The position numbers and the translations under genes were made by a program. DNA of 64,000 nt from an uncultured bacterium (GTDB lineage: Bacteria > Patescibacteriota > Minisyncoccia > Phycocordibacterales > Phycocordibacteraceae), in NCBI GenBank assembly GCA_963759775.1, contig CAVXAH010000001.1:38787-102786 (forward strand), written 5' to 3'. Shown one piece after another: positions 5,823 through 53,524 of the stretch (the stretch's first letter is position 1; every line of letters begins with the position of its first letter). Below the pieces are notes generated by a model, which was not told the DNA's origin, searched no databases, and saw only the letters and a list, made by a program, of their open reading frames with translations.

Positions 5823-5871
5823 CCCCGTATAAGAACTTTCTATAAAACTTGAAAAAAGTTTCTATACGGGG
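5823..5871. promoter_or_regulatory. inverted repeat CCCCGTATA-N31-TATACGGGG with nested AT-rich hairpin, 15 nt upstream of grpE; candidate heat-shock operator
   Basis: 9-bp perfect arms; internal aaactt-gaaaa-aagttt hairpin and a TTTCTATA direct repeat; not CIRCE or HAIR consensus. Confidence 0.4.
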
Positions 5872-5885
5872 CATAGTGGAGACCA

Positions 5886-6444
5886 ATGAGTGATAATGAT
5901 GATGTACATATTGAATCCGATGACGCTGAAAGCGGTGCGAGCGAGTCTGAAATAGCCGAGAATGAGTCGCGTGCCGAAACAAAGCTCGGGAAGCTCCACG
6001 CAGAACTTGATGCGTGCAAGAAAGAGAAACAGGAGTACCTGGACGGCTGGCAGCGCTCAAAGGCAGACTATGTAAATGCGTTGAAACGTTCTGAGGGCGA
6101 TTTAAAAACGGCCCGGTCAGTGGGGCTTATGAAGGCTGTAGAAGCCCTTCTCCCTGCGTATGACGCTCTTGGGCGCGCGACCGGGCACGGCGAAGTACCT
6201 GCTGGTTTTCAGGCTATTGCTAAGCAACTAGAAAGTTCCTTCGCTACGCTCTGGGCTCACGGAGGTGGGGAAGGTCGGTGAGAAGTTTGACCCTCTGATT
6301 CACGAGGCCCTGGGACAGGATCCCGTAGACTCAGAAAACAAGGATGACACGGTCACGGCAGTTCTTGAGACAGGTTGGAAGATTCAAGATACAATCATCC
6401 GACCAGCAAAAGTGCGCGTCGGGCGTTTTCAGGAAAATAAATAG
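5886..6444 (+). CDS. grpE: nucleotide exchange factor GrpE, with apparent +1 frameshift near 6273
   Basis: N-terminal 131 aa in frame 0, GrpE C-terminus (GEKFDPLIHEAL...VRVGRF) in frame +1; an extra g in the aagg run restores one ORF. Confidence 0.85.
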
Positions 6445-6490
6445 TTGCATTTGTTTTCCTTTTTTTGTATTTTTTATTATCTTACTATAA

Positions 6491-8388
<1,898 letters not shown>

Positions 8389-9554: not shown

Positions 9555-9701
9555 AACCCATTTCAAAATTTCGACACGAGCGGGGCACTGTCTCCGAGGG
9601 GGTCGCGAAGTACGACGGTGCGAGCGTTTCAGGCGTTTTTTGAGCACAAAAATGCCGTACCCGAGAAGGCAGTATCCCGTGAGTGGGTTTTGAAATGGGT
9701 T
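9555..9701. repeat. about 147-bp intergenic element with 14-bp terminal inverted repeat AACCCATTTCAAAA (family D, copy 1)
   Basis: about 85% identical to 51107-51246; internal conserved hairpin ggcgtttttt-gagcac-aaaaa(a)cgcc with a G-U compatible substitution. Confidence 0.7.
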
Positions 9702-10259: not shown

Positions 10260-10302
10260 TCAGCCCGCCTCTTGTGCTCCGTGGTATATTTTTGTCATGA
10301 AT

Positions 10303-10417
10303 CCCGTTAGAAATCGCGGACGCCGTCGAAGCCGTAAAGCGGGTTTTTTTACTAACCTTAATCGGATAGGGTTCGGTCGTGCAGTTACCTGCGTGTCCGC
10401 GTCCTATTTCTAACGGG
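10303..10417. repeat. MITE-like element (family A), TIR CCCGTTAGAAAT / ATTTCTAACGGG, abutting the tyrS ATG
   Basis: 12-bp perfect TIR extended by a covarying stem (atcgcggacgc / gcgtgtccgcg); internal TAATCGGATAGGG core shared, in inverted orientation, with 49096-49198. Confidence 0.7.
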
Positions 10418-11670
10418 ATGAACATCGCTGAGGATTTGAAGGCGCGAGGGCTCGTGGAGCACTCATCTGCTGATGTCGCCACCATTCTTGGCACCCCGCG
10501 TACGGTGTACCTCGGCATAGACCCCACTGCCGACTCACTCCACGTCGGGCACTTAGTTCCCATTCTTTTTATGAAGCGGCTTGCCGCGGCAGGTCATAAG
10601 CTTGTCTTTTTGGTTGGGGGCGGTACCGGCATGATTGGCGATCCGAAAGAGAAAGGGGAGCGCGTACTGCTTGATGAGAAAACCATAAGTAAAAATACGG
10701 AGGCTCTCAAAAAACAACTTGAAGACATTTTGGGACGCTTGCCATTCAAAATGGTAGACAACGCCACATGGCTCTCTAAGGTCCGTCTTGTGCCATTCCT
10801 TCGCGACATAGGAAAACACTTCACCGTAAACGACCTCGTAAAGCGCGACCTCATAGCAAAACGCCTTGCAACTCCGGATGAGAGTATTTCGTACACTGAA
10901 TTCACCTACTCACTTCTCCAGGCCTATGATTATTTGGAATTAAATACTAAATACCACTGCGATCTTCAGGTTGGGGCTTCGGACCAATGGACGAACATTC
11001 TTTCGGGTGTTGACCTTATCCGCAAGAAAAAGGAAAAGAAGCGTTCGCGCTCACGGTTCCTTTGGTTACTGACGCGAGCGGCAAAAAGTTTGGGAAATCC
11101 GAAGGAAATGCAGTATGGCTTGACCCTGAGAAGACATCTCCGTACCAGTTCTATCAGTTTTGGCTTGGCTTACCGGACGAAGGCATAGAAAAGTATCTCA
11201 AGATTTATACTACTCTTCCGCTTGGAGACATTGAGGCACTTATGGAGAAGCATCGCGCGGCTCCACAAGAGCGCGAGGCGCAAGAGGTGCTTGCGCGTTT
11301 CGCGACTGAGTCGTTGCATGGCCCAGCAAATACCGCAGAAGCGGCGGCGGCAACCGATGCGCTTTTTGGCGGACGCTCTCTTGAAAGCCTTAGTCGCGAC
11401 GAGCGTGAGGCGGTCATACGAGAAGTCCCATCCCTCGCACTTTCAAAGAAAGAACTTGAGGCAGGGTATCCACTTACTGAAGCACTAGTGGGAGGTAAGC
11501 TTGCTTCCTCAAAGTCCGATGCGCGCCGACTTATAGAAGGGAAGGCGGTTACTCTAAGCGGGCTGTTAATCGAAAATGCAGATCAAAAACTCTATCCGGG
11601 CGACCTCAGTGGCGGCCTCGCACTCATTCGCAAAGGCAAGCGCGATGTGCTCGTTTTGGTTTTGAAATAA
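10418..11670 (+). CDS. tyrS: tyrosyl-tRNA synthetase, apparent frameshift near 11030-11040 (A-run)
   Basis: class I HIGH motif (LHVGHL), KFGKSEGN (KMSKS-like), C-terminal S4 domain; pieces 10418-11188 and 11062-11670 colinear with TyrRS; start taken as MNIAEDLKARGLVE at 10418. Confidence 0.9.
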
Positions 11671-11699: not shown

Positions 11700-11783
11700 G
11701 CGTCGGTAGGTAAGTGGTCAAAACACGCACGCTGTAAACGTGCTGCCCTCGCGGCTTCGGAGGTTCGAATCCTCCCCGGCGCA
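11700..11783 (+). tRNA. tRNA-Tyr (anticodon GTA), type II with long variable arm; CCA not encoded
   Basis: acceptor stem GCGTCGG/CCGGCGC (one G-U), anticodon stem GCACG/CGTGC with loop CTGTAAA, T-arm GGAGG-TTCGAAT-CCTCC; D-arm pairing weak. Confidence 0.7.
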
Positions 11784-11798
11784 CACAAAAAAGGACGT

Positions 11799-11828
11799 CC
11801 CGAGCGTGAGCTCGGGCGTTTCTTTTTG
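11799..11828 (+). terminator. rho-independent terminator after tRNA-Tyr
   Basis: cccgagc-gtga-gctcggg followed by cgtttcttttt. Confidence 0.6.
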
Positions 11829-11833
11829 TGGCA

Positions 11834-11850
11834 GCCGGGGAGGATTCGAA
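11834..11850. repeat. inverted 17-nt copy of the tRNA-Tyr T-arm/acceptor 3' segment
   Basis: gccggggaggattcgaa is the exact reverse complement of ttcgaatcctccccggc at 11764-11780. Confidence 0.8.
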
Positions 11851-12198
11851 GAGACGGAGCGGGGTACCCATTCAGCAGAATGGGTCGCGAGGCGCGGACA
11901 CGACCAAACCCAAGCGACGGCGAGGGTTTGAGTTGCGGAAGAAAAGTGTACTCACGGTCCAATCCCGGCGCTCCGCCCGCGCGGTTACGCGTCGGGCGCT
12001 GGAGCCTATGCCGCTCTCTATGCACGGTTTTGTTGGCGGGGGGTTGCGGAGCGAGGGCACGTAGCTTCGCAAGGTCGGAGCCTGACGAGGCGAGACGGGG
12101 TCGCGGAATCCGCCAGCAGGCGGATATCTGTGACAGAAGCTTGAAAAAGGAATGGAGCGGCAGGGCGAGGGTCGATTTTGGGTTATACTGAAAACTAT

Positions 12199-12996
12199 AT
12201 GGCCACGGCTACACTTACAAAAAACCTTAAACGACCTGCTCCAAAAAATACGGATTCTTTTGATAACTTTTTAAACGAAATAATTTGTGGTGATGTTATG
12301 GATGTGCTGAAAAAGATCCCTGACGGATCAATTGATATTGTCGTCACATCACCTCCCTATAATCTCAAAAACTCTACTGGCAACGGAATGAAAGATGGTC
12401 GTGGCGGTAAATGGGCAAACGCGGCACTTCAAAAAGGATATTCACATCATCATGACTGTATGCCTCACGGTGAGTATGTTCAATGGCAGAGAAATTGTTT
12501 GGCAGAAATGTTAAGAATCGTCCCGGACGATGGTGCAATCTTTTATAATCACAAATGGCGTGTACAAAACGGATTACTACAGGACCGTCAAGATATTGTG
12601 GAGGGTTTACCTGTACGCCAAATCATAATCTGGCGCAGAAAAGGCGGCTTCAATTTTAATCCCGGATATTTCGTGCCCACCTATGAAGTTATCTATCTCA
12701 TCGCCAAAAAAGATTTTAGACTTGCCCCCAAAGCAAATGGTCATGGTGATGTGTGGGAGTTCACGCAAGAAATGAATAATGATCATCCAGCAGCTTTCCC
12801 CATTGATTTGATCGATAGAATTATTGCTTCTACAAACGCGAAGACCGTTTTAGATCCTTTCATGGGTTCTGGCACCACTGCCATTTCAGCCATAAATAAT
12901 GGTCGTCACTATGTTGGTATCGAAATCTCGCCTGAATACTGCGAAATGGCAGAGAAGAGAATAAAAGACCACAAATCCCAAATTAAACTTTGGTAA
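12199..12996 (+). CDS. DNA methyltransferase, beta-class (motif IV SPPY precedes motif I FxGxG); N4-cytosine or N6-adenine
   Basis: VVTSPPYNL then DPFMGSGTT; about 40% GC versus about 55% for flanks; ATG at 12199 preferred over the TTG at 12178 used by the ORF track. Confidence 0.85.
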   Translation: MATATLTKNLKRPAPKNTDSFDNFLNEIICGDVMDVLKKIPDGSIDIVVTSPPYNLKNSTGNGMKDGRGGKWANAALQKGYSHHHDCMPHGEYVQWQRNCLAEMLRIVPDDGAIFYNHKWRVQNGLLQDRQDIVEGLPVRQIIIWRRKGGFNFNPGYFVPTYEVIYLIAKKDFRLAPKANGHGDVWEFTQEMNNDHPAAFPIDLIDRIIASTNAKTVLDPFMGSGTTAISAINNGRHYVGIEISPEYCEMAEKRIKDHKSQIKLW

Positions 12997-13000
12997 TACT

Positions 13001-13798
13001 ATGAAAAAGAAATCGGTTATCTATACCAAACCATCTCTTATCGCAAAACTAAAAGAAATTTCAGCGACGGGATGGATTCCAAATGCTCGTCACGGCAATG
13101 CTGGCGGTATTGGTAATACACTTGAGGATTTGCTCGGTATCAAAGAAAACAATTTGCCAATCCCAAATGCCGCAGAATGGGAACTAAAAACACAAAGAGC
13201 AAACACGACTTCACTCACTACTCTTTTTCACATAGAACCGTCGCCGAGAGCCATTGGCTTTGTGCCAAAAGTGCTTCTGCCGATGTACGGTTGGGCTCAT
13301 CAAGAGGATGGAAAGAAATATCCAAAAGGAGAAAAGAGTTTCCGGCAGACGATACATGGACAATCACCGAGCGACCGAGGATTTAAGGTCGTTATAGATC
13401 GCAAGGAAGAAAAGGTCCTTATCTCTTTTGACGCAGGAGGCGTGGATATAAGACACAAGAAATGGCTAACGACAGTTAAAAAGCGCATAGGGCTTACGGA
13501 ATTAAATCCACAGCCTTATTGGGGCTTTGATGATCTTGAGCATAAGGCAGGAACAAAACTACTCAATTCTTTTTACGTGCAGGCGGAAGTGAAAATTGAA
13601 GAGAAAAAAGAATTCTATCACTACACGAAAGTGATGATGCTTCAGAAGTTCAGCTTTGAGGGATTTCTCAAAGCACTTGAAGAAGGCAAGGTTCTCGTAG
13701 ATTTTGATGCTCGAACGGGACACAACCATGGAACCAAGTTTCGCCTACGCCAGGATTGTTTACCCATGTTGTACGAGAAAATAACGAAAATCCTATGA
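13001..13798 (+). CDS. Type II restriction endonuclease, MutH/MvaI-BcnI-like PD-(D/E)XK fold
   Basis: 265 aa, 5 bp downstream of the MTase; ...IPNAAEWELKT resembles the MutH catalytic (D/E)-X-K segment; size matches MvaI/BcnI family; AT-rich like the MTase. Confidence 0.55.
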   Translation: MKKKSVIYTKPSLIAKLKEISATGWIPNARHGNAGGIGNTLEDLLGIKENNLPIPNAAEWELKTQRANTTSLTTLFHIEPSPRAIGFVPKVLLPMYGWAHQEDGKKYPKGEKSFRQTIHGQSPSDRGFKVVIDRKEEKVLISFDAGGVDIRHKKWLTTVKKRIGLTELNPQPYWGFDDLEHKAGTKLLNSFYVQAEVKIEEKKEFYHYTKVMMLQKFSFEGFLKALEEGKVLVDFDARTGHNHGTKFRLRQDCLPMLYEKITKIL

Positions 13799-18004: not shown

Positions 18005-19425
18005 GGCTTGTTTTTACAAAAGGAACGATAGACGCCGCCCCCAAGGGTTATGTACGCGTGCGGATCACTCACGAACCAAAAGGAACGAGGAAGTTTGTTC
18101 GCGAGGGCGCCGTTGAGTGGCTTGAGCTCGGTGCAGGAAAACCAACGGACATGAACTACCGTAAGTTTATGGTGCTGTGCCGATCTGTTGTTCAAACCGC
18201 TAAAGGAAATAAAGCAAGAAAAATTGCTATTCAGTTTGACCGTACTCCTGAATTTTTTGAAAATTTGCAGAACCATACGCCTGAAGAAATTTCACGTGTC
18301 GCGGCAGAGAATTTTGAGATGGCGAACTTTGACTGGAATGTCTTTAAAACGAAACCAAAAGAGGGGTGGAATACGGTAGAAGAAATCCTCCTCTACGGCG
18401 GGTCTTCAAAGTCAATTGAGAAGGCTGCGCAAGTGGGTCAGATGGTGGGGCAGGGCGTAAATGCCTGCCGGGCACTTGCAAACACCCCAGGGGGCGACAT
18501 GACTCCCCTGAAGCTCGCCAAAGCCGCAAAAGAGGCTGTAAAAGGGCTTGCCGGTCAAGGTAACTACCCTTGGGCAAGAAAGAGATGGAAAAGCTTGGTA
18601 TGGGGGCTCTTTTGGGGGTCGCAAAAGGGTCGTCCGAGGAGCCTACATTTACCGTCATGGAGTACCGAGCTGGCGGCAAAGAAAAGCCCAGTCGTGCTTG
18701 CCGGTAAGGGAGTTACGTTTGATAGCGGCGGACTCAATTTGAAACCCTCCGGAAGCATTTATGAAATGCATATGGATATGTCGGGTGCCGCTTCTGTCAT
18801 ACACGCCGTTGCGCTCGCCGCTCGTCTCAAACTCAAAAAGAATGTCATCGGACTTCTTCCGTCCGTTGAAAACATGCCGGGCAATAGCGCGTATCGCCCC
18901 GGAGATGTGCTCAAATCTCTTTCTGGAAAAACTATTGAGGTCTTGAATACGGATGCAGAGGGTCGCCTGATTCTTGCCGATGCACTTACGTATGCAAAAC
19001 GTTTCAATCCGTCAGTTGTATTTGATGTAGCGACACTCACTGGTGCAGCAGTCTCTGCGCTTGGTCTTCATGCAAGCGGACTCATGACGCGCGACGACAA
19101 AGTCGCGAAAAAAGTGGAGGAAGCGGGCGAGGAGTCGGGAGATTATGTGTGGCGTCTCCCGCTTTGGGATGAATACGAAGAAGCGATAAAGGGAACGTTC
19201 GCTGATATCACTAATTCCGCAACGGGCCCGTACGCGCGTTCTGGCGGCGCAATAGAGGGCGGCATGTTCCTCTGGCAATTTGCAAAAGAACTCGGAGTGC
19301 CCGTGGGTGCATCTTGATATTGCGCCACGGATGACTGCGGCGCCGGGAGACGAGCTTGCGAAGGGTGCGGCCGGAGCCCCCGTGCGACTCCTGGTAAAAT
19401 TTATAGAACAATGGCCGTCACACTA
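18001..19425 (+). CDS. pepA: leucyl aminopeptidase (M17 family), with clustered apparent frameshifts (near 18550, 18575, 18690, 19300)
   Basis: NTDAEGRL signature and VLAGKGVTFDSGG; alternative frames encode KKEMEKLGMGALLGVAKGS and the true C-terminus WVHLDIAPRM...VRLLVKFIEQW ending at 19425. Confidence 0.85.
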
Positions 19426-19548
19426 AACAGTGTTGCCGCACGCACGATTACGAGAGTGGTACTATTTAAAAATGACTTTCCCTACACGAAAATCCCCAAG
19501 TCCTAATGACGGTGCGGCCAAAGCCGCGACACCGTTTTAGTGTGTCGG
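19415..19548. repeat. MITE-like element (family B), TIR CCGTCACACTAAAC / GTTTTAGTGTGTCGG, filling the pepA-scpA junction
   Basis: each TIR is the exact reverse complement of the opposite TIR of the GIY-YIG element at 22259-22542; the left TIR contains the pepA stop codon. Confidence 0.75.
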
Positions 19549-19551
19549 CCA

Positions 19552-22257: not shown

Positions 22258-22258
22258 C

Positions 22259-22542
22259 CCGACACACTAAAACAACCTTGCGAGACGACTATGTATTACG
22301 TATATATTTTGCAAAGTAAGAAAGACGGGAAGTTTTACACGGGATACACCACTGATTTACGACGTCGTCTCGCAGAACACACGACAAGAGCCTCAATCTC
22401 AACGCGCTCGCGACTTCCTCTGCAACTGTTATATTACGAAGCATATATGTCGCAGGCCGACGCAAAATCTAGAGAGTATCGCCTTAAGACTTCTCAAGGC
22501 GCGCGCACTGCATTAAAGCGACGAGGTCGTTTAGTGTGACGG
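22259..22542 (+). mobile_element. TIR-flanked GIY-YIG gene unit (family B putative autonomous copy)
   Basis: imperfect 15-18 bp TIRs CCGACACACTAAAAC / GTTTAGTGTGACGG immediately flank the ORF; right TIR overlaps the ORF stop and the mraY start; same TIR family as 19415-19548. Confidence 0.55.
22291..22539 (+). CDS. GIY-YIG nuclease superfamily protein (YhbQ/UPF0213-like)
   Basis: 82 aa, YVYIL..K.GK.YTGYT.DL.RRL.EH then Y.E motifs. Confidence 0.8.
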   Translation: MYYVYILQSKKDGKFYTGYTTDLRRRLAEHTTRASISTRSRLPLQLLYYEAYMSQADAKSREYRLKTSQGARTALKRRGRLV

Positions 22543-23606
22543 GTATGATTAGTCTCGCCGCTCAAGTTTTCATCCCATCTGCAATCGCGTTCGCGCTTGG
22601 CATCGTCTTTGCGCCACTTCTCGCTGGAATTTTATATGAAAAGAAAGCGTGGAAAAAGAAAGCGGGGAAGGGTAATGGTATGGGCGGCGGTGGCACTCCT
22701 ATTTTTGATGAACTTCATAAGATACGGGAGGTTTCAACGCCACGCATGGGCGGCATTTTAATCTGGGCATCGGTTTTAGCGACCGCATTTGGAATCTGGC
22801 TCCTCGCTCGAACCGTGGGTGGTGTTTTTCTTGACCTCAACTTCATAGACCGAAGCGAAACGTGGCTCCCCATTTTTGCACTGTTTGTTGGGGCCATTGC
22901 GGGACTCTTTGATGACCTTCTAGAGATATCTTCAGGCACGGGAGGTCTCTCTCTTCGCGGAAGACTCGCCATTGTAGCGGTAATGGGGCTTGCTGCGGGA
23001 TGGTGGTTTTATACAAAACTCGGCGTTACGGCTCTCGGCATTCCTTTCGGGAATCCGCTTGAACTGGGCGCTCTTATCATTCCATTTTTTGCTCTGGTAA
23101 CCCTCGCTATTTATGCGGGCGGGACAATTGATGGAATTGACGGACTTGCGGGGGGAGTTTTTGCAATTATTTTCATGACGTACGCCGGCATCGCCTTTGG
23201 AGAGAGCCAGTTCGCACTCGCAACCTTCGCTGCAACGTGTGCAGGCGCGACACTGGCTTTTCTTTGGTTCAACATCCCACCCGCGCGCTTCTATATGTCG
23301 GAAACCGGCAGTATGGCTCTTACGCTTGCGCTTGCCATGACCGCGTTTGCGGCCGATAACCTTGCAAAGGGCGTGGGGGTGTTCGTGCTTCCTCTCGTCG
23401 CGCTTCCACTCACCGCAACGGTCATTACGACCCTGCTTCAGGTGTTTTGGAAAAAGTCCTTTCATACCAAACTTTTCATGGTCGCGCCTATTCACCATCA
23501 TTTTGAAGCTCTTGGTTGGCCACCCTATAAAGTCACGATGCGCTACTGGGTGATTACGATCATTGCCGGTGTTTTGGGCCTTTCAATCGCGCTCATTTCC
23601 GCGTAG
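22536..23606 (+). CDS. mraY: phospho-N-acetylmuramoyl-pentapeptide transferase
   Basis: DD motif, DGIDGLAGG, HHHFE motif (PIHHHFE), 10 TM helices. Confidence 0.9.
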   Translation: MTGMISLAAQVFIPSAIAFALGIVFAPLLAGILYEKKAWKKKAGKGNGMGGGGTPIFDELHKIREVSTPRMGGILIWASVLATAFGIWLLARTVGGVFLDLNFIDRSETWLPIFALFVGAIAGLFDDLLEISSGTGGLSLRGRLAIVAVMGLAAGWWFYTKLGVTALGIPFGNPLELGALIIPFFALVTLAIYAGGTIDGIDGLAGGVFAIIFMTYAGIAFGESQFALATFAATCAGATLAFLWFNIPPARFYMSETGSMALTLALAMTAFAADNLAKGVGVFVLPLVALPLTATVITTLLQVFWKKSFHTKLFMVAPIHHHFEALGWPPYKVTMRYWVITIIAGVLGLSIALISA

Positions 23607-30823: not shown

Positions 30824-31267
30824 CTATTCTGCCTCAACGATTATTTGGAACTTGCCGAAACTCTCTCCTGCAGAGACTGGGACATCAAACGTGCCGACTT
30901 CTTTGATTGGCTTTTCAAGGCGAACTACGTCTTCTGGGAGTTCAATGTGAGCCTGCTCACGAACTGCATCGAGAATCTCTGTCTCCCCCACTGCGTCGTA
31001 GAGGTGCCCTTTCTCGTTCACCTTCATCTTGATTACAATGCGCTTCTCGCCAAGCGTCTCCAAGCTCTGGGCTACCAAGGTTCCCTGCATTTTGCGCTGT
31101 ACGTCCATCTGCTTCTTCCTGAGCTCTGCGTTCTTGCTAGCCGCCGGAGTAGCAGGAATGGCCATTTTCTTAGGGATAAGGAAGTTCAGGCCATGCCCGT
31201 CCGACACCGTGATGGTGTCGTGCATTCGGCCTGTGTCCTTCACATCTTTCGTCAATATAACTTTCAT
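30824..31267 (-). CDS. rplI: 50S ribosomal protein L9
   Basis: MKVILTKDVK..G..GD...V..G...NFL N-terminal domain, 147 aa. Confidence 0.9.
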   Translation of the reverse strand: MKVILTKDVKDTGRMHDTITVSDGHGLNFLIPKKMAIPATPAASKNAELRKKQMDVQRKMQGTLVAQSLETLGEKRIVIKMKVNEKGHLYDAVGETEILDAVREQAHIELPEDVVRLEKPIKEVGTFDVPVSAGESFGKFQIIVEAE

Positions 31268-31268
31268 A

Positions 31269-31404
31269 CCCTGGGGTACAGCATGGCATTGCTCCTAAGT
31301 GGCTAGCCGTGACGTAGAAATATAGAGATTATTAAATCAATACCGCACGAGGAGCAGAGCGGACATCGGAGCAAAAAGCCACGATGCCATGCTGTCCCAC
31401 GGGG
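31269..31404. repeat. MITE-like element (family C), 21-bp TIR CCCTGGGGTACAGCATGGCAT, directly upstream of the rplI start
   Basis: right end ATGCCATGCTGTCCCACGGGG is a near-perfect reverse complement; second copy at 53369-53500. Confidence 0.7.
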
Positions 31405-31446
31405 CATAGTCAGGCTATCCTAACCGTTTAAACGCCAAAAGGCAAC

Positions 31447-47362: not shown

Positions 47363-49095
47363 AGTGAGGAGGGCGTAGTGGCACGGTCGGGCGGTACGTC
47401 GTAGTAATTAATCAGGAAGTGAGTCAGGTTCATGAAGGTAGAAGTGAGTGTTTCGGATGCGTAGCGAACCCCTTGCGGATCGTTGGTGTAAAGGAGAATG
47501 ATAAACCGCGGCGCGTACGAAGGAAAGTAGCCGAAGAAGGAGTGGAAGTACCTATCTTTGTAGTACCCGCCTCCGGGCATGGTGAGCTGGGCAGTTCCGG
47601 TCTTTGCCGCAACAGACATAGACGCTATTTTTTCCTTTCCCTGCGCAAGGTCAAAGTCAACGACGTGAGTAAGCATTCCCGCGACCGTGCGCACTGCCTC
47701 CGGAGAAAACACCTCCACTGTCTCCGGTGGCTCAAGAGTCCGCGTGATGCCGGTATCAAGCTTAATGGCGCGCGTGAGGTAGGGCCGAGCCATTGCCCCG
47801 TCGTTTGCGAGCGCACTTAAGGCACTTATCATTTGCACCGGTGTTACCGCGATACCTTGGCCAAATGAGGCGGTGTCGTAACCTACCTGCTGCGGCCTTG
47901 AGATGTTTTGGAGAAGACTTCCCGTTTCACTTGGAAGGTCAATGTGTGTCTTCTCGCCAAAGAGGGTCGTGAAGTACGTTCGGAGTCGCTCTTTGCCGAG
48001 TTGTCGCCCAACCCAGGAGGCGCCGAGGTTCAAAGATTCCGACAAAATTTGCTGTACCGCTACCCTTCCGCGCGCCTTGAGGTCAAAGTTGCAAATAGTG
48101 TAGGTATCCACGTCCATACAACCCGTATCGTTATAGGTTGAGTCGGCGGTTATCGCATCCGCATCAAGGCCAGCGGCCACAGTGAGTGGCTTCACTATGG
48201 AGCCAAATTCATACACATGCTCCACAAGCGGATTCCCGAGAACCGCCGGGTCAACACTTGAGAGATCGTTCGGGTTGTAGGTCGGGACCGTGAGAAGAGC
48301 GAGAACGGCTCCTGTGCGCGGGTCCATAATGATTCCGCCTGTTTCTTTGCTCTTAAATTTCGCGTGCACTGCTTTAATTTCACTCTCAAGCCGAGTCGCA
48401 ACCGCGGGCTCAATGGTGGTTACCACATTGCCCTCACGTACGTTTTTTGTATCAATGAGTAAATCCCCCGCGCCTGAGAAAAGGGTTGCGAAGAAATTTT
48501 TATAAAGAGAGTCACCGCTGCGCGCGAGTGTGTGGTCATAGTACGACTCAAGACCTGTTCGTCCGGAAAGACTGTCGCCGCTACCATAGGAAACGATGCC
48601 AACTGACTGTGCCGCAAGCGTCCCTCCAGGATACTCTCTCCAGCGCTCACGAAGCACTATGACGCCGGGTATTTTAAGCGCGGCGAGCGCGCGACCTTCC
48701 TCTTCCAAAAGATGATGCGCTATCTCAACATACACACGCTCGGACCGTAGAGATGCGGCGAGGAATACCTCACGGTCAATGGTAGAGGTGGCGAGTGCGG
48801 TCGTAAGGGAGTTGTAAGCGGCTTCGGGGTCTTTAAGGGTCTGGGGATTCATTGCGAGCAAAAACCCCGTTTGAAGGGTCGCGGCTGAAATGAGTGCTCC
48901 GTCCTTGCGAGTGAAATAAATAGACCCGCGATCAAAAAGTCCACTTATGCCGCCGGAAAACTGCCGCTCGGCCTTGAGCGCATACGTTTCTCCCTGCACG
49001 ATTTGGACAATGTAGAGGCGTCCGGCGATAAGGATCGCGATGATAAGAATTCCGAGAAATACAAGTCGGATACGGAGTCTAAACTGCGCGCGCAT
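47359..49095 (-). CDS. ftsI: penicillin-binding protein (transpeptidase; FtsI/PBP3-like)
   Basis: SxxK (SIVK), KTGTA motifs, N-terminal TM; dcw position before murF. Confidence 0.9.
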   Translation of the reverse strand: MRAQFRLRIRLVFLGILIIAILIAGRLYIVQIVQGETYALKAERQFSGGISGLFDRGSIYFTRKDGALISAATLQTGFLLAMNPQTLKDPEAAYNSLTTALATSTIDREVFLAASLRSERVYVEIAHHLLEEEGRALAALKIPGVIVLRERWREYPGGTLAAQSVGIVSYGSGDSLSGRTGLESYYDHTLARSGDSLYKNFFATLFSGAGDLLIDTKNVREGNVVTTIEPAVATRLESEIKAVHAKFKSKETGGIIMDPRTGAVLALLTVPTYNPNDLSSVDPAVLGNPLVEHVYEFGSIVKPLTVAAGLDADAITADSTYNDTGCMDVDTYTICNFDLKARGRVAVQQILSESLNLGASWVGRQLGKERLRTYFTTLFGEKTHIDLPSETGSLLQNISRPQQVGYDTASFGQGIAVTPVQMISALSALANDGAMARPYLTRAIKLDTGITRTLEPPETVEVFSPEAVRTVAGMLTHVVDFDLAQGKEKIASMSVAAKTGTAQLTMPGGGYYKDRYFHSFFGYFPSYAPRFIILLYTNDPQGVRYASETLTSTFMNLTHFLINYYDVPPDRATTPSSL

Positions 49096-49198
49096 CCCGT
49101 TAGAAATAGAACACGAACACTCTCGAAGTGTTGTGCCCTATCCGATTAGGTCCAATAATCATATGCCTCATCATATCGTGTTCGTGATTTCTAACGGG
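49096..49198. repeat. MITE-like element (family A), TIR CCCGTTAGAAAT / ATTTCTAACGGG, abutting the ftsI start codon
   Basis: 12-bp perfect TIRs, covarying sub-terminal stem (agaacacgaaca / tgttcgtgat), internal CCCTATCCGATTAGG core inverted relative to 10303-10417. Confidence 0.7.
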
Positions 49199-49213
49199 AC
49201 GCATTGTACAAGA

Positions 49214-51096: not shown

Positions 51097-51106
51097 CGTC
51101 AAAATC

Positions 51107-51246
51107 TATTTCAAAACCTCAACACGAGCGGGGCACTGCATCCGAGGGGGTCGCGAAGTTGGGCGGTGCGAGCGTTTCAGGCGTTTTTTGAGCACAAAAA
51201 ACGCCGTACCTGAGGAGGTAGTGGCCCGTGAGTGGGTTTTGAAATA
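51107..51246. repeat. about 140-bp element with 12-bp TIR TATTTCAAAACC (family D, copy 2), ending 4 nt from the lysK stop
   Basis: about 85% identity with 9555-9701 including the perfect hairpin ggcgtttttt-gagcac-aaaaaacgcc. Confidence 0.7.
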
Positions 51247-51250
51247 AGCA

Positions 51251-52840: not shown

Positions 52841-53320
52841 TTACGCCACCTTTTCTATCGTGTAGGTCTGTTTGCCGTTTGGAGTCTCAAACGTAAATTC
52901 GTCCCCTTTCTTCTTGCCCATGAGCGCAGCGCCTAGCGGCGAGACGTGCGAAAGCTTGTGGAGACGCATCTCTGCCTCCTCACTACCCACGATTTCGTAT
53001 TCGTGCATGTCTGTTCCCTTCTCTTTCTTAATGGAAACTTTTGAGCCGAAGCCAACGATGTCTTTTCTCTTTTTACCCTCCGTGACAATCTTCGCGTGCT
53101 TCACCAACTCCTCAAGCCTTCTGATACGCTCCTCGGTTGCGGCCTGAAGGTCGCGCGCTTCCTGGTACTCCGCGTTTTCGGAAAGGTCGCCAAGCGAGCG
53201 GGCGTACTCAAGGTTCTTTGCAATCTCGGTACGGCGAACGGTTTTCAAATGCTCGAGCTCCTTCACCATTTCATCAAACTTCTCTTGCGAGACCATCGTC
53301 TCTTGGGTGGCATCGGTCAT
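52841..53320 (-). CDS. greA: transcription elongation factor GreA
   Basis: GreA N-terminal coiled coil and C-terminal FKBP-like domain; start at MTDATQE. Confidence 0.9.
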   Translation of the reverse strand: MTDATQETMVSQEKFDEMVKELEHLKTVRRTEIAKNLEYARSLGDLSENAEYQEARDLQAATEERIRRLEELVKHAKIVTEGKKRKDIVGFGSKVSIKKEKGTDMHEYEIVGSEEAEMRLHKLSHVSPLGAALMGKKKGDEFTFETPNGKQTYTIEKVA

Positions 53321-53368
53321 ACGTGTGCTGTTTGCGGGCATTGTACGTGCTCTGCTCTGAAGCGCAAG

Positions 53369-53500
53369 CCCTGGGGTACAACATGGCATCGTGTCTTTAG
53401 CTCCAACGATCAAAAGCTATAAACCTTTTGTTTTTATGTGACGTCTGGCAACTGAAATAAACGTAGGACACGAAGAGTAATGCCATGTTGTCCCACGGGG
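53369..53500. repeat. MITE-like element (family C) copy 2, TIR CCCTGGGGTACAACATGGCAT / ATGCCATGTTGTCCCACGGGG, 48 nt upstream of greA
   Basis: TIRs match 31269-31404; internal sequence differs but keeps sub-terminal complementarity. Confidence 0.7.
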
Positions 53501-53524
53501 CAAGCCCATAAGGAAAAATCGATT

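Follow-up and report, generated by a model that had tools for sequence, protein, structure and literature searches.

The stretch of DNA considered here (the window, 64 kb at its full length) comes from an uncultured bacterium of the Candidate Phyla Radiation (CPR), or Patescibacteria, a group with compact genomes of about 0.6 Mb that are generally regarded as transposon-poor. Homologues of its L9 and GreA proteins assign the stretch to Patescibacteria, close to Paceibacteria/Kaiserbacteria. On its minus strand, a CHASE2-cyclase gene (stop 31447) is followed by a short element bounded by terminal inverted repeats (TIRs) and then by rplI (ATG 31267); 22 kb away, a PBP2 gene (stop 53525) is followed by a second copy of the element and then by greA (ATG 53320, a start backed by GreA homologues of 156-159 amino acids). 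Both rplI and greA are full length. The original prediction, made from the letters of the window, had described two elements of about 135 bp at 31269-31404 and 53369-53500, and these limits are exact. The 21-mer CCCTGGGGTACARCATGGCAT has precisely four sites in the window at three or fewer mismatches, where 0.00 were expected from 100 shuffles, and the four form two inverted pairs, 31269-31289 with 31384-31404 and 53369-53389 with 53480-53500. Copy 1 is thus 136 bp and copy 2 is 132 bp. Their placement was also given correctly, with copy 1 starting 1 nt past the rplI start codon (31265-31267 on the plus strand) and copy 2 ending 48 nt upstream of the greA ATG.

On the gene strand both copies have the ends CCCCGTGGG ... 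CCCCAGGG, with CCCCGT and CCCTGG as the arm tips, and the arm sequence of this two-copy family is also written as CCCYGKGGKACARCATGGCAT. The CCCTGGGG arm adjoins the downstream gene in both cases, so that the copies have the same orientation. Described initially as near-perfect 21-bp TIRs, the arms are near-perfect between the copies but not within them. Corresponding arms of the two copies differ at position 13 only, copy 1 having G and copy 2 having A, and there the partner arm position co-varies (C in copy 1, T in copy 2), and 40 of 42 arm bases are common to both copies; the two arms of one copy are complementary at 18 of 21 positions, with the same three mismatches in each copy. The co-variation at position 13 fits either sibling master elements whose ends co-evolve with the enzyme or selection for hairpin pairing, and a similar co-variation (C/T with G/A) is seen in family B, one of the sister families described below, at locus L012. 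The gene-proximal arms contain CCTGG, an MvaI-type site, and a restriction-modification pair is present at window positions 12178-13798, consisting of an N6/N4 DNA methylase (PF01555) and an MvaI/BcnI-family endonuclease (PF15515).

The interiors, 94 nt in copy 1 and 90 nt in copy 2, are indeed different from each other, as had been stated: their mutual alignment is at or below shuffle level in both orientations. Neither has a blastn-short match elsewhere in the window or in any related locus fetched, and their GC contents are 48% (copy 1) and 39% (copy 2) in a window of 51% GC. The whole elements fold strongly (z -4.7 to -5.3), which is due to the arms alone, since folding of the interiors does not surpass that of shuffled sequence on either strand (z -0.5 to -1.05). 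The coding capacity of both elements is limited to chance short open reading frames (ORFs), and Rfam has no match for the window at gathering score, with noise only for the two loci at E<=5. Absent from the original prediction are the perfect 4-bp direct repeats that flank both copies, CATA for copy 1 and CAAG for copy 2 on the plus strand; by simple arithmetic the chance of both is about 1.5e-5.

Insertion sites at rplI and greA

Copies of the element are missing from three rplI loci and five greA loci of related Paceibacteria with the same gene order. At rplI, the gene strand of the window reads TTAGGATagcctgacTATG, the element, and TATGAAAGTT, while the empty site of L008 and L009 (same cyclase-rplI order, L9 proteins 73-76% identical) reads TTAGGATggggcgacTATGAAAGTT. 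The L007 locus is also uninterrupted, with TTGnnn-17-TAGGAT kept and 23 nt from TAGGAT to the ATG. When the element and one repeat are removed, the window aligns gap-free to L009 and to L008, with 54 of 76 positions identical overall to the latter; in the upstream part, the restored site matches L008 at 27 of 46 positions and the present sequence at 17 of 46. A MAFFT alignment of the rplI spacer was dropped in favor of this restored-site comparison, having mis-placed the promoter of the relatives on an element-internal TTAGGAG. Copy 1 landed exactly on the rplI start codon, and the TATG duplication rebuilt the ATG. A Logan contig of 2,367 bp (ERR12037361) encodes an identical L9 and probably carries copy 1 too, because its cyclase-rplI spacer of 179 nt equals that of the window.

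The motif TTGnnn-17-TAGGAT, a putative sigma-70-type promoter of rplI, is found in L007, L008, and L009. It ends 9 nt ahead of the ATG in L008, in L009, and in the restored window, where the ATG is the ancestral one, and lies farther upstream in L007. The promoter calls at both rplI and greA are based on conservation, as both motifs fall below the threshold of a simple scanner. In 64 called genes of L007, L008, L010, and L012, a Shine-Dalgarno (SD)-like 4-mer at -18 to -8 occurs ten times, with a background of 13%, and many of those genes have a -10-like box (TANNNT) 6-10 nt before the ATG; initiation in this lineage seems to be mostly leaderless or SD-independent. Because SD motifs are scarce and the -10 box is 9 nt upstream, the rplI ATG is probably at or beside the transcription start of a leaderless mRNA. 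With the element in place, transcription of rplI would still begin at the old promoter and would now run through a leader of 140 nt. This transcript is predicted to have its arms paired as a 21-bp stem that is lengthened by UAUG-UAUG pairing, with both AUGs buried. L9 might then be made after the stem is melted by upstream translation, after RNase III-type processing as in Correia elements, or at lower efficiency.

At greA, the gene strand reads tatgggCTTG, CCCCGTGGG...CCCCAGGG, and CTTGCGCTTCAG. In L010, L011, L012, and L013 (GreA 91-94% identical) the stop of the upstream gene is followed by 9-20 nt and then by CTTGCGC-16-TACAAT, and there is no element. The multiple alignment with these four relatives has one clean gap that ends exactly at GCTTGCGC, and the columns of TTGCGC and TACAAT are invariant; the same boxes are present in L015. 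The spacer between PBP2 and greA is 57-65 nt in relatives and 204 nt in the window, that is, 68 nt plus the 132-bp element and the 4-bp repeat. For copy 2 the point of entry was the TTG of the greA -35 box, where the CTTG repeat left TTGCGC intact (53367-53362). The motif TTGCGC-16-TACAAT, which lies 19-26 nt before the ATG, is a likely sigma-70-type promoter of greA. Because this promoter is downstream of copy 2, the element would not be part of the greA mRNA, and greA expression would be essentially unaffected. Two other relatives (L015 741-903 and L016 295-457) are without copy 2 and have an unrelated segment of about 105 nt just upstream of the -35 CTTGCGC; because of this extra segment, the spot upstream of the greA -35 box is suggested to be a recurrent insertion site.

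Outward promoters, which had been proposed for the elements, were not borne out: a scan of both elements was empty, no -10-like hexamer is at a workable distance from the rplI ATG, and the putative native promoters lie upstream of the element at rplI and downstream of it at greA. Identification of the pair as miniature transposable elements with inverted repeats (MITEs) agrees with the 4-bp duplications, the uninterrupted sites in relatives at both loci, the lack of coding capacity, and the lack of an Rfam match. Had the homologous intergenic regions of relatives contained the same sequence, an ancient leader would have been indicated; they are without it, and the insertion reading stands. The two-copy family is a real, previously uncatalogued MITE family. 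Both copies are very probably non-autonomous elements of the cut-and-paste type, made up of 21-bp imperfect TIRs around some 90 bp of unrelated, non-coding, unstructured filler. Perfect repeats here and single-copy, uninterrupted sites in relatives are the classical mark of transposition, and they show that each copy entered its target by a 4-bp staggered cut that left the TATG and CTTG duplications. An enzyme whose gene lies elsewhere in the genome would have moved the elements in trans.

Sister elements and the GIY-YIG gene

Two scans, an unbiased one for inverted repeats that lie close together and are flanked by direct repeats and another based on the tips, found five further short elements in the window, belonging to three further families (B, D, and a 49-bp hairpin), with four of the five on gene starts. 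The window therefore has seven short TIR elements, five of which coincide with housekeeping start codons (those of tyrS, scpA, mraY, rplI, and ftsI). Inverted pairs with CCYG tips and 4-bp repeats were observed five times with 0.28 expected, and two more have 5-bp repeats. All four arm families begin with a CCYG-type tip, including CCCCGT/CCCTGG in the two-copy family, where it falls inside bases 1-5 of each arm, TCCCGT in family B, and CCCGT/CCCGA/CCTGA/CCTTC in family D. Past the first 4-6 bases, the sister arms are unrelated to CCCCGTGGGACARCATGGCAT. The duplication is 4 bp in the two-copy family and in family B, and 5-6 bp in family D.

The 12 insertions examined are located at seven start codons, three tRNA 5' ends, one -10 box, and one -35 box, with GACTATGAAAG as an example of a target site. 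One fixed end is toward the target gene in five long forms with a GIY-YIG gene and in four family-B short copies, with the exception of E7. In family B (TIR TCCCGTTAGAAAT), the last A of the element and the duplicated TG rebuild the ATG of tyrS, ftsI, murF, and an RNase T-like gene. A target specificity for WTG only was considered and is weakened by a tRNA-Ala site with the duplication CCCG. The idea that the upstream ORFs of family-B insertions are kept open for coupling was dropped, as the L012 copy has an early stop. Gene callers extend greA and scpA into the repeats, and starts will be misplaced by such programs at insertion sites of this kind. At the 49-bp element, TTGAAA is placed 17 nt before the retained CATAGT, and a hybrid promoter could form. 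In the region downstream (5886-8388), grpE is split over frames (5886-6281 and 6265-6444), as is dnaK (6503-6778, 6732-7049, 6880-7305, 7079-7360, and 7390-8388), and tyrS also looks frameshifted (10418-11188 and 11062-11670), while most other window genes are intact. The grpE and dnaK splits are either local pseudogenes downstream of the 49-bp insertion or local assembly indels.

The 286-bp element of family D occupies the ATGA in which the stop of the upstream D-Ala-D-Ala carboxypeptidase gene overlaps the start of mraY. Its single gene (ORF 22291-22539, with a stop 5 nt before the mraY ATG) encodes an 82-amino acid GIY-YIG protein (PF01541, E 1.9e-15) of the UPF0213 type, with 1zg2 and 1ywl as the nearest solved relatives. 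Homologues, usually of 89 amino acids, are common in Kaiserbacteria and Paceibacteria, and in the contigs examined they are always within the same kind of TIRs and a 5-6-bp duplication. The three elements of L017 and L027 end on bases 1-3 of a tRNA-Phe gene and two tRNA-Ala genes, and the tRNA 5' end is rebuilt by the duplication and the terminal G or Gs of the element. Three GIY-YIG genes lie within 2 kb of a tRNA cluster in L017-L019. The ORF is directed at the target gene in all five long forms, and in the four intact family-D forms the right TIR encodes the C-terminus of the ORF, with the stop a few bases before the rebuilt gene start. The clade of the protein tracks the TIR type: P0309, which is 55-60% identical to the others, occurs with family B, and proteins that are 70-78% identical occur with family D. 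Viral GIY-YIG homologues (38-49% identical) have no such bracketing repeats, and bacterial GIY-YIG elements that have terminal repeats and duplicate their target are not described in the searchable literature.

Table 1. Coordinates of the two copies, their flanking features, and the sister elements. TSD, target-site duplication; strand as reported.
Feature	Location	Strand	Sequence, repeat, or remark
Element copy 1	window 31269..31404	-	gene strand CCCCGTGGGACAGCATGGCAT, 94 nt, ATGCCATGCTGTACCCCAGGG; absent from syntenic rplI loci L007, L008, L009
Gene-distal TIR, copy 1 (CCCCGTGGGACAGCATGGCAT)	window 31384..31404	-	21-mer search
Gene-proximal TIR, copy 1 (ATGCCATGCTGTACCCCAGGG)	window 31269..31289	-	21-mer search
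Interior, copy 1	window 31290..31383	.	unlike copy 2 interior; no structure signal; no GIY-YIG remnant
Upstream TSD at rplI, TATG on gene strand	window 31405..31408	-	holds ancestral rplI ATG 31407-31405
Downstream TSD at rplI, TATG	window 31265..31268	-	source of present rplI start codon
rplI promoter-like motif	window 31417..31445	-	-35 TTGCCT 31445-31440, 17-nt spacer, -10 TAGGAT 31422-31417
34-codon ORF from ancestral ATG into element	window 31303..31407	-	stop 35 nt before rplI ATG; putatively translated
rplI, ribosomal protein L9, 147 aa, intact	window 30824..31267	-	PF01281 and PF03948; 73-78% identity to nearest relatives
Element copy 2	window 53369..53500	-	same arms, A/T at position 13; gene-relative orientation as copy 1
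Upstream TSD at greA, CTTG on gene strand	window 53501..53504	-	flanking repeat
Downstream TSD at greA, CTTG	window 53365..53368	-	TTG is first half of greA -35 box
greA promoter-like motif	window 53340..53367	-	-35 TTGCGC 53367-53362, 16-nt spacer, -10 TACAAT 53345-53340
greA, 159 aa from ATG 53320	window 52841..53320	-	GreA homologues
49-bp hairpin element	window 5823-5871		tip CCCCGTATA (CCCCGT), repeat CATA; inside -10 box of TTGACT-17-CATAGT promoter upstream of grpE
Family B element, 117 bp	window 10302-10418		tip TCCCGTTAGAAAT, repeat TGAA; on tyrS ATG
Family D short form, 136 bp	window 19414-19549		tip GCCGTCACACTAAA, repeat CAATG; scpA ATG; inverted relative to 286-bp element
Family D long form, 286 bp	window 22258-22543		TIRs CCCGACACACTAAA / CCCGTCACACTAAA, repeat TATGA; at mraY start
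Family B element, 105 bp	window 49095-49199		repeat TGCG on gene strand; on ftsI ATG; site empty in L010, L012
Family B copy	L012 16137-16254		murF ATG; site empty in L010 and window
GIY-YIG element (L027-L034)	L027 1468-1774		TIR CCTGWCACACTGAA, repeat CTTGG
GIY-YIG element (L017-L026)	L017 1470-1773		repeat GCCTGT
GIY-YIG element	L017 90-401		ends on bases 1-3 of a tRNA gene
Family-B left TIR, GIY-YIG gene P0309, family-B short element	L035 2480-2880		RNase T-like gene ATG, TGAA repeats

Mobilization and alternative explanations

The two-copy family may belong to an undescribed GIY-YIG-associated group that inserts at gene 5' ends. The leading candidate for the mobilizing enzyme, at slightly less than even odds, is a small UPF0213-type GIY-YIG nuclease, because a gene of this kind is carried by sister families that have the same CCYG-type tips, gene-start sites, and duplications of 4-5 bp. 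This enzyme is favored by the tips, a 4-bp duplication as in family B, the position of insertion, the orientation, and the absence of any other element-borne protein. A wider proposal, offered more tentatively than the choice of enzyme, is that the two copies are non-autonomous members of a new class in Patescibacteria whose autonomous forms would be TIR elements of about 280-400 bp with a lone UPF0213-type nuclease of 82-89 amino acids and without a DDE, HUH, serine, tyrosine, or Cas1 transposase. Such elements would insert in fixed orientation in the first bases of a gene (a leaderless start codon or position 1-3 of a tRNA), and the 4-6-bp duplication together with the last base or bases of the element would rebuild the gene 5' end. 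The host promoter would then transcribe the element, and the host gene would survive as a coupled downstream cistron.

Several observations weigh against these readings. The likeness of the two-copy family to the GIY-YIG families consists of 4-6 tip bases, the length of the duplication, and the position of insertion, and the best-documented GIY-YIG elements, those of family D, make 5-6-bp rather than 4-bp duplications. Long forms with a GIY-YIG gene are known for families B and D, but none with the arms of the two-copy family was found, and no remnant of such a gene was detected by tblastn with GIY-YIG proteins in either copy. We know of no biochemical precedent for a lone GIY-YIG domain performing TIR-dependent transposition. 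Copy number, a defining feature of MITEs, stands at two known copies, and fully unrelated interiors are unusual for a MITE family grown from one master copy. A longer copy with a transposase or GIY-YIG gene, which the original prediction had suggested looking for, failed to appear: neither the window nor 37 related loci nor any of the collections scanned yielded an extended element bounded by these arms. An exact-arm scan of 185,579 species-representative genomes gave five single-arm matches in unrelated phyla, with about four expected by chance, and the same scan of JGI metagenomes gave one match, which is inside a membrane-protein ORF and was taken as chance. One-arm and two-arm patterns found nothing in IMG/VR, and BLAST of PLSDB with both elements gave 20-nt chance matches only. 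About 100 kb of related Patescibacteria loci have no similar arm even at six or fewer mismatches. One of the five genome matches, in an Acidobacteriaceae spacer (L004 5870-5903, ATGCCATGTTGTACCCCGGGGTACAACTTGGCGT), is a 17-bp zero-loop palindrome that resembles the arms joined tip to tip, which was judged coincidental.

The most serious alternative, possible though on the doubtful side, retains the MITE but ascribes its movement to a DDE transposase of the conventional sort, the gene for which lies elsewhere in the genome, with the GIY-YIG genes of the sister families as passengers or homing hitch-hikers. An enzyme of the IS1380 type is the best candidate, as IS1380 ends begin with CC and the element makes 4-5-bp duplications. 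The 4-bp duplications and CCC...GGG termini agree with the features of IS1380 and piggyBac, and DDE enzymes are the known route to TIRs with a target duplication. The piggyBac family has been paired with IS1380 as its prokaryotic counterpart (PMC5718144), and shared ends with unrelated interiors are known in Tn3-derived inverted-repeat miniature elements (TIMEs) (PMC4133298). However, no transposase domain was found in the Pfam listings of the roughly 100 kb of related loci or in the 30 large window ORFs, which are housekeeping genes without a transposase, DDE, RAYT, TnpA, or Y1 transposase domain. The GIY-YIG protein is the sole protein found inside elements with this class of tips, in five independent long elements and with the ORF co-oriented with the target gene; the end of the ORF lies in the right TIR in four of the five, and GIY-YIG clade and TIR type change together. 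A domesticated module, kept for the benefit of an outward promoter, an RNase III site as in Correia elements, or translational coupling via short ORFs, is an unlikely explanation. The arms are 40/42 identical between copies, and copy 1 makes the 34-codon ORF followed by a 6-codon ORF (MLYPRV) in the proximal arm, whose TGA overlaps the rplI ATG. In the 49-bp element at 5823-5871, TTGAAA comes 17 nt ahead of the -10 box that the target promoter has kept, and RNase III cuts Correia elements at their repeats (PMC2649163; PMC10969869). Against such a benefit, no promoter-like site was found inside either copy, the native promoters of both genes are conserved in element-free relatives that thrive without it, and the predicted rplI leader hides both AUGs in a stem, which looks like a cost rather than a benefit.

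The remaining explanations are much less probable. A hairpin-forming inverted pair of units of about 20 bp, extragenic and with co-varying arms, resembles a doublet of repetitive extragenic palindromes (REPIN or REP-like) or a single-stranded DNA element moved by an HUH enzyme of the RAYT or IS200/IS605 type. Elements moved by HUH enzymes insert without duplication as far as we know, whereas the single-copy sites in relatives show the 4-bp target duplications to be true. With no RAYT or TnpA domain in the window and only two copies known, this origin is very improbable. Slighter still is the probability of a conserved cis-regulatory leader or structured RNA of rplI and greA, such as an r-protein leader, attenuator, or terminator. 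The whole elements have a good fold (z -4.7 to -5.3), one paired position co-varies between the copies, and both lie upstream of minus-strand genes, but the interiors are unrelated and unstructured, the stem has no U tract after it, and there is no Rfam match. Copy 2 is upstream of the greA promoter and would therefore be outside the greA mRNA, and an RNA gene would not be expected to have 4-bp duplications. The sequence is missing from the orthologous spacers of eight relative loci, and a conserved leader is largely ruled out by the 4-bp repeats and the uninterrupted sites in relatives.

Transposition of a MITE, possibly by a GIY-YIG nuclease, has consequences beyond the two loci. MITEs in CPR bacteria are not described in the searchable literature, and such small genomes do tolerate active parasitic DNA. 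SD-poor, probably leaderless starts can absorb a hairpin of 100-300 bp between promoter and start codon. In practical terms, the two-copy family offers an insertion marker that is clean and can be dated, along with a testable example of a gene for a ribosomal protein split from its promoter. Taken alone this family is a familiar kind of element, while its company in the window hints at a less familiar kind. If the GIY-YIG link is true, the few known transposition catalysts would be joined by a new class of enzyme, in a very small insertion system that is specific for site and orientation.

Relation to known elements and other repeats

Like the prokaryotic MITEs Chunjie and QMITE1/2, the two copies are shorter than 500 bp, have TIRs in the range of 4-30 bp and direct repeats, encode no transposase, are intergenic, and have a predicted long hairpin in the transcript (PMC10969869). 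In contrast to those MITEs, this family is known from two copies with entirely unrelated interiors, and its elements are not AT-rich compared to the genome. The sites here are also a housekeeping start codon and a -35 box, not an arbitrary AT-rich spacer. Correia elements have a TA duplication, a conserved core with an integration host factor (IHF) site, promoters at the ends, and hundreds of copies. The present family differs in having a 4-bp duplication, no conserved core, no detected promoter, and two known copies. It is otherwise similar to the Correia repeat enclosed elements (CREE) of Neisseria, which measure about 100-150 bp, have TIRs of about 26 bp, lie beside gene starts, and are co-transcribed; in both, RNase III could plausibly act on the TIR stem and the expression of the adjacent gene can change (PMC2649163). 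TIMEs are likewise non-autonomous, with the terminal repeats alone in common and diverse or mosaic interiors (PMC4133298). Their repeats are of the Tn3 type and 38 bp long with 5-6-bp duplications, unlike the 21-bp arms, CCC tips, and 4-bp duplications seen here. IS1380 and piggyBac have similar CC(C)...GG(G) termini and duplicate 4-5 bp of the target, but no IS1380-type transposase was seen in the window ORFs.

The PF01541 domain encoded by the sister long forms relates them to GIY-YIG homing endonucleases, both free-standing and intron-borne (I-TevI and Seg), as well as to UPF0213/YhbQ proteins (1zg2 and 1ywl), and homing endonuclease genes also have specific insertion sites. To our knowledge, homing endonuclease genes have neither terminal inverted repeats nor a target duplication. 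They also carry DNA-binding domains, while the sister-family proteins are a bare catalytic domain of 82-89 amino acids and the two-copy family encodes nothing. The family also resembles the sister elements (families B, D, and the 49-bp element), which share the CCYG tips, 4-5-bp duplications, short forms of 49-136 bp, gene-start sites, and a fixed orientation.

Two other types of repeat are present. A separate repeat of about 145 nt (9555-9701 and 51103-51250) is 90% identical over its full length, with the ends ATTTCAAAA / TTTTGAAAT; its two copies follow dnaJ and lysS on their downstream side. This repeat lacks CCYG tips, is without an Rfam match, and may represent either a further MITE or a gene for a small RNA. 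The acceptor and T-arm sequence recurs in inverted form 3' of tRNA genes in the window (11764-11850, 37 nt with 81% complementarity) and in L010 (19319-19386, 16 nt, perfect). The L010 hairpin was rejected as a related element, being built on the tRNA 3' end, and these tRNA 3' hairpins are possibly tRNA-embedded terminators.

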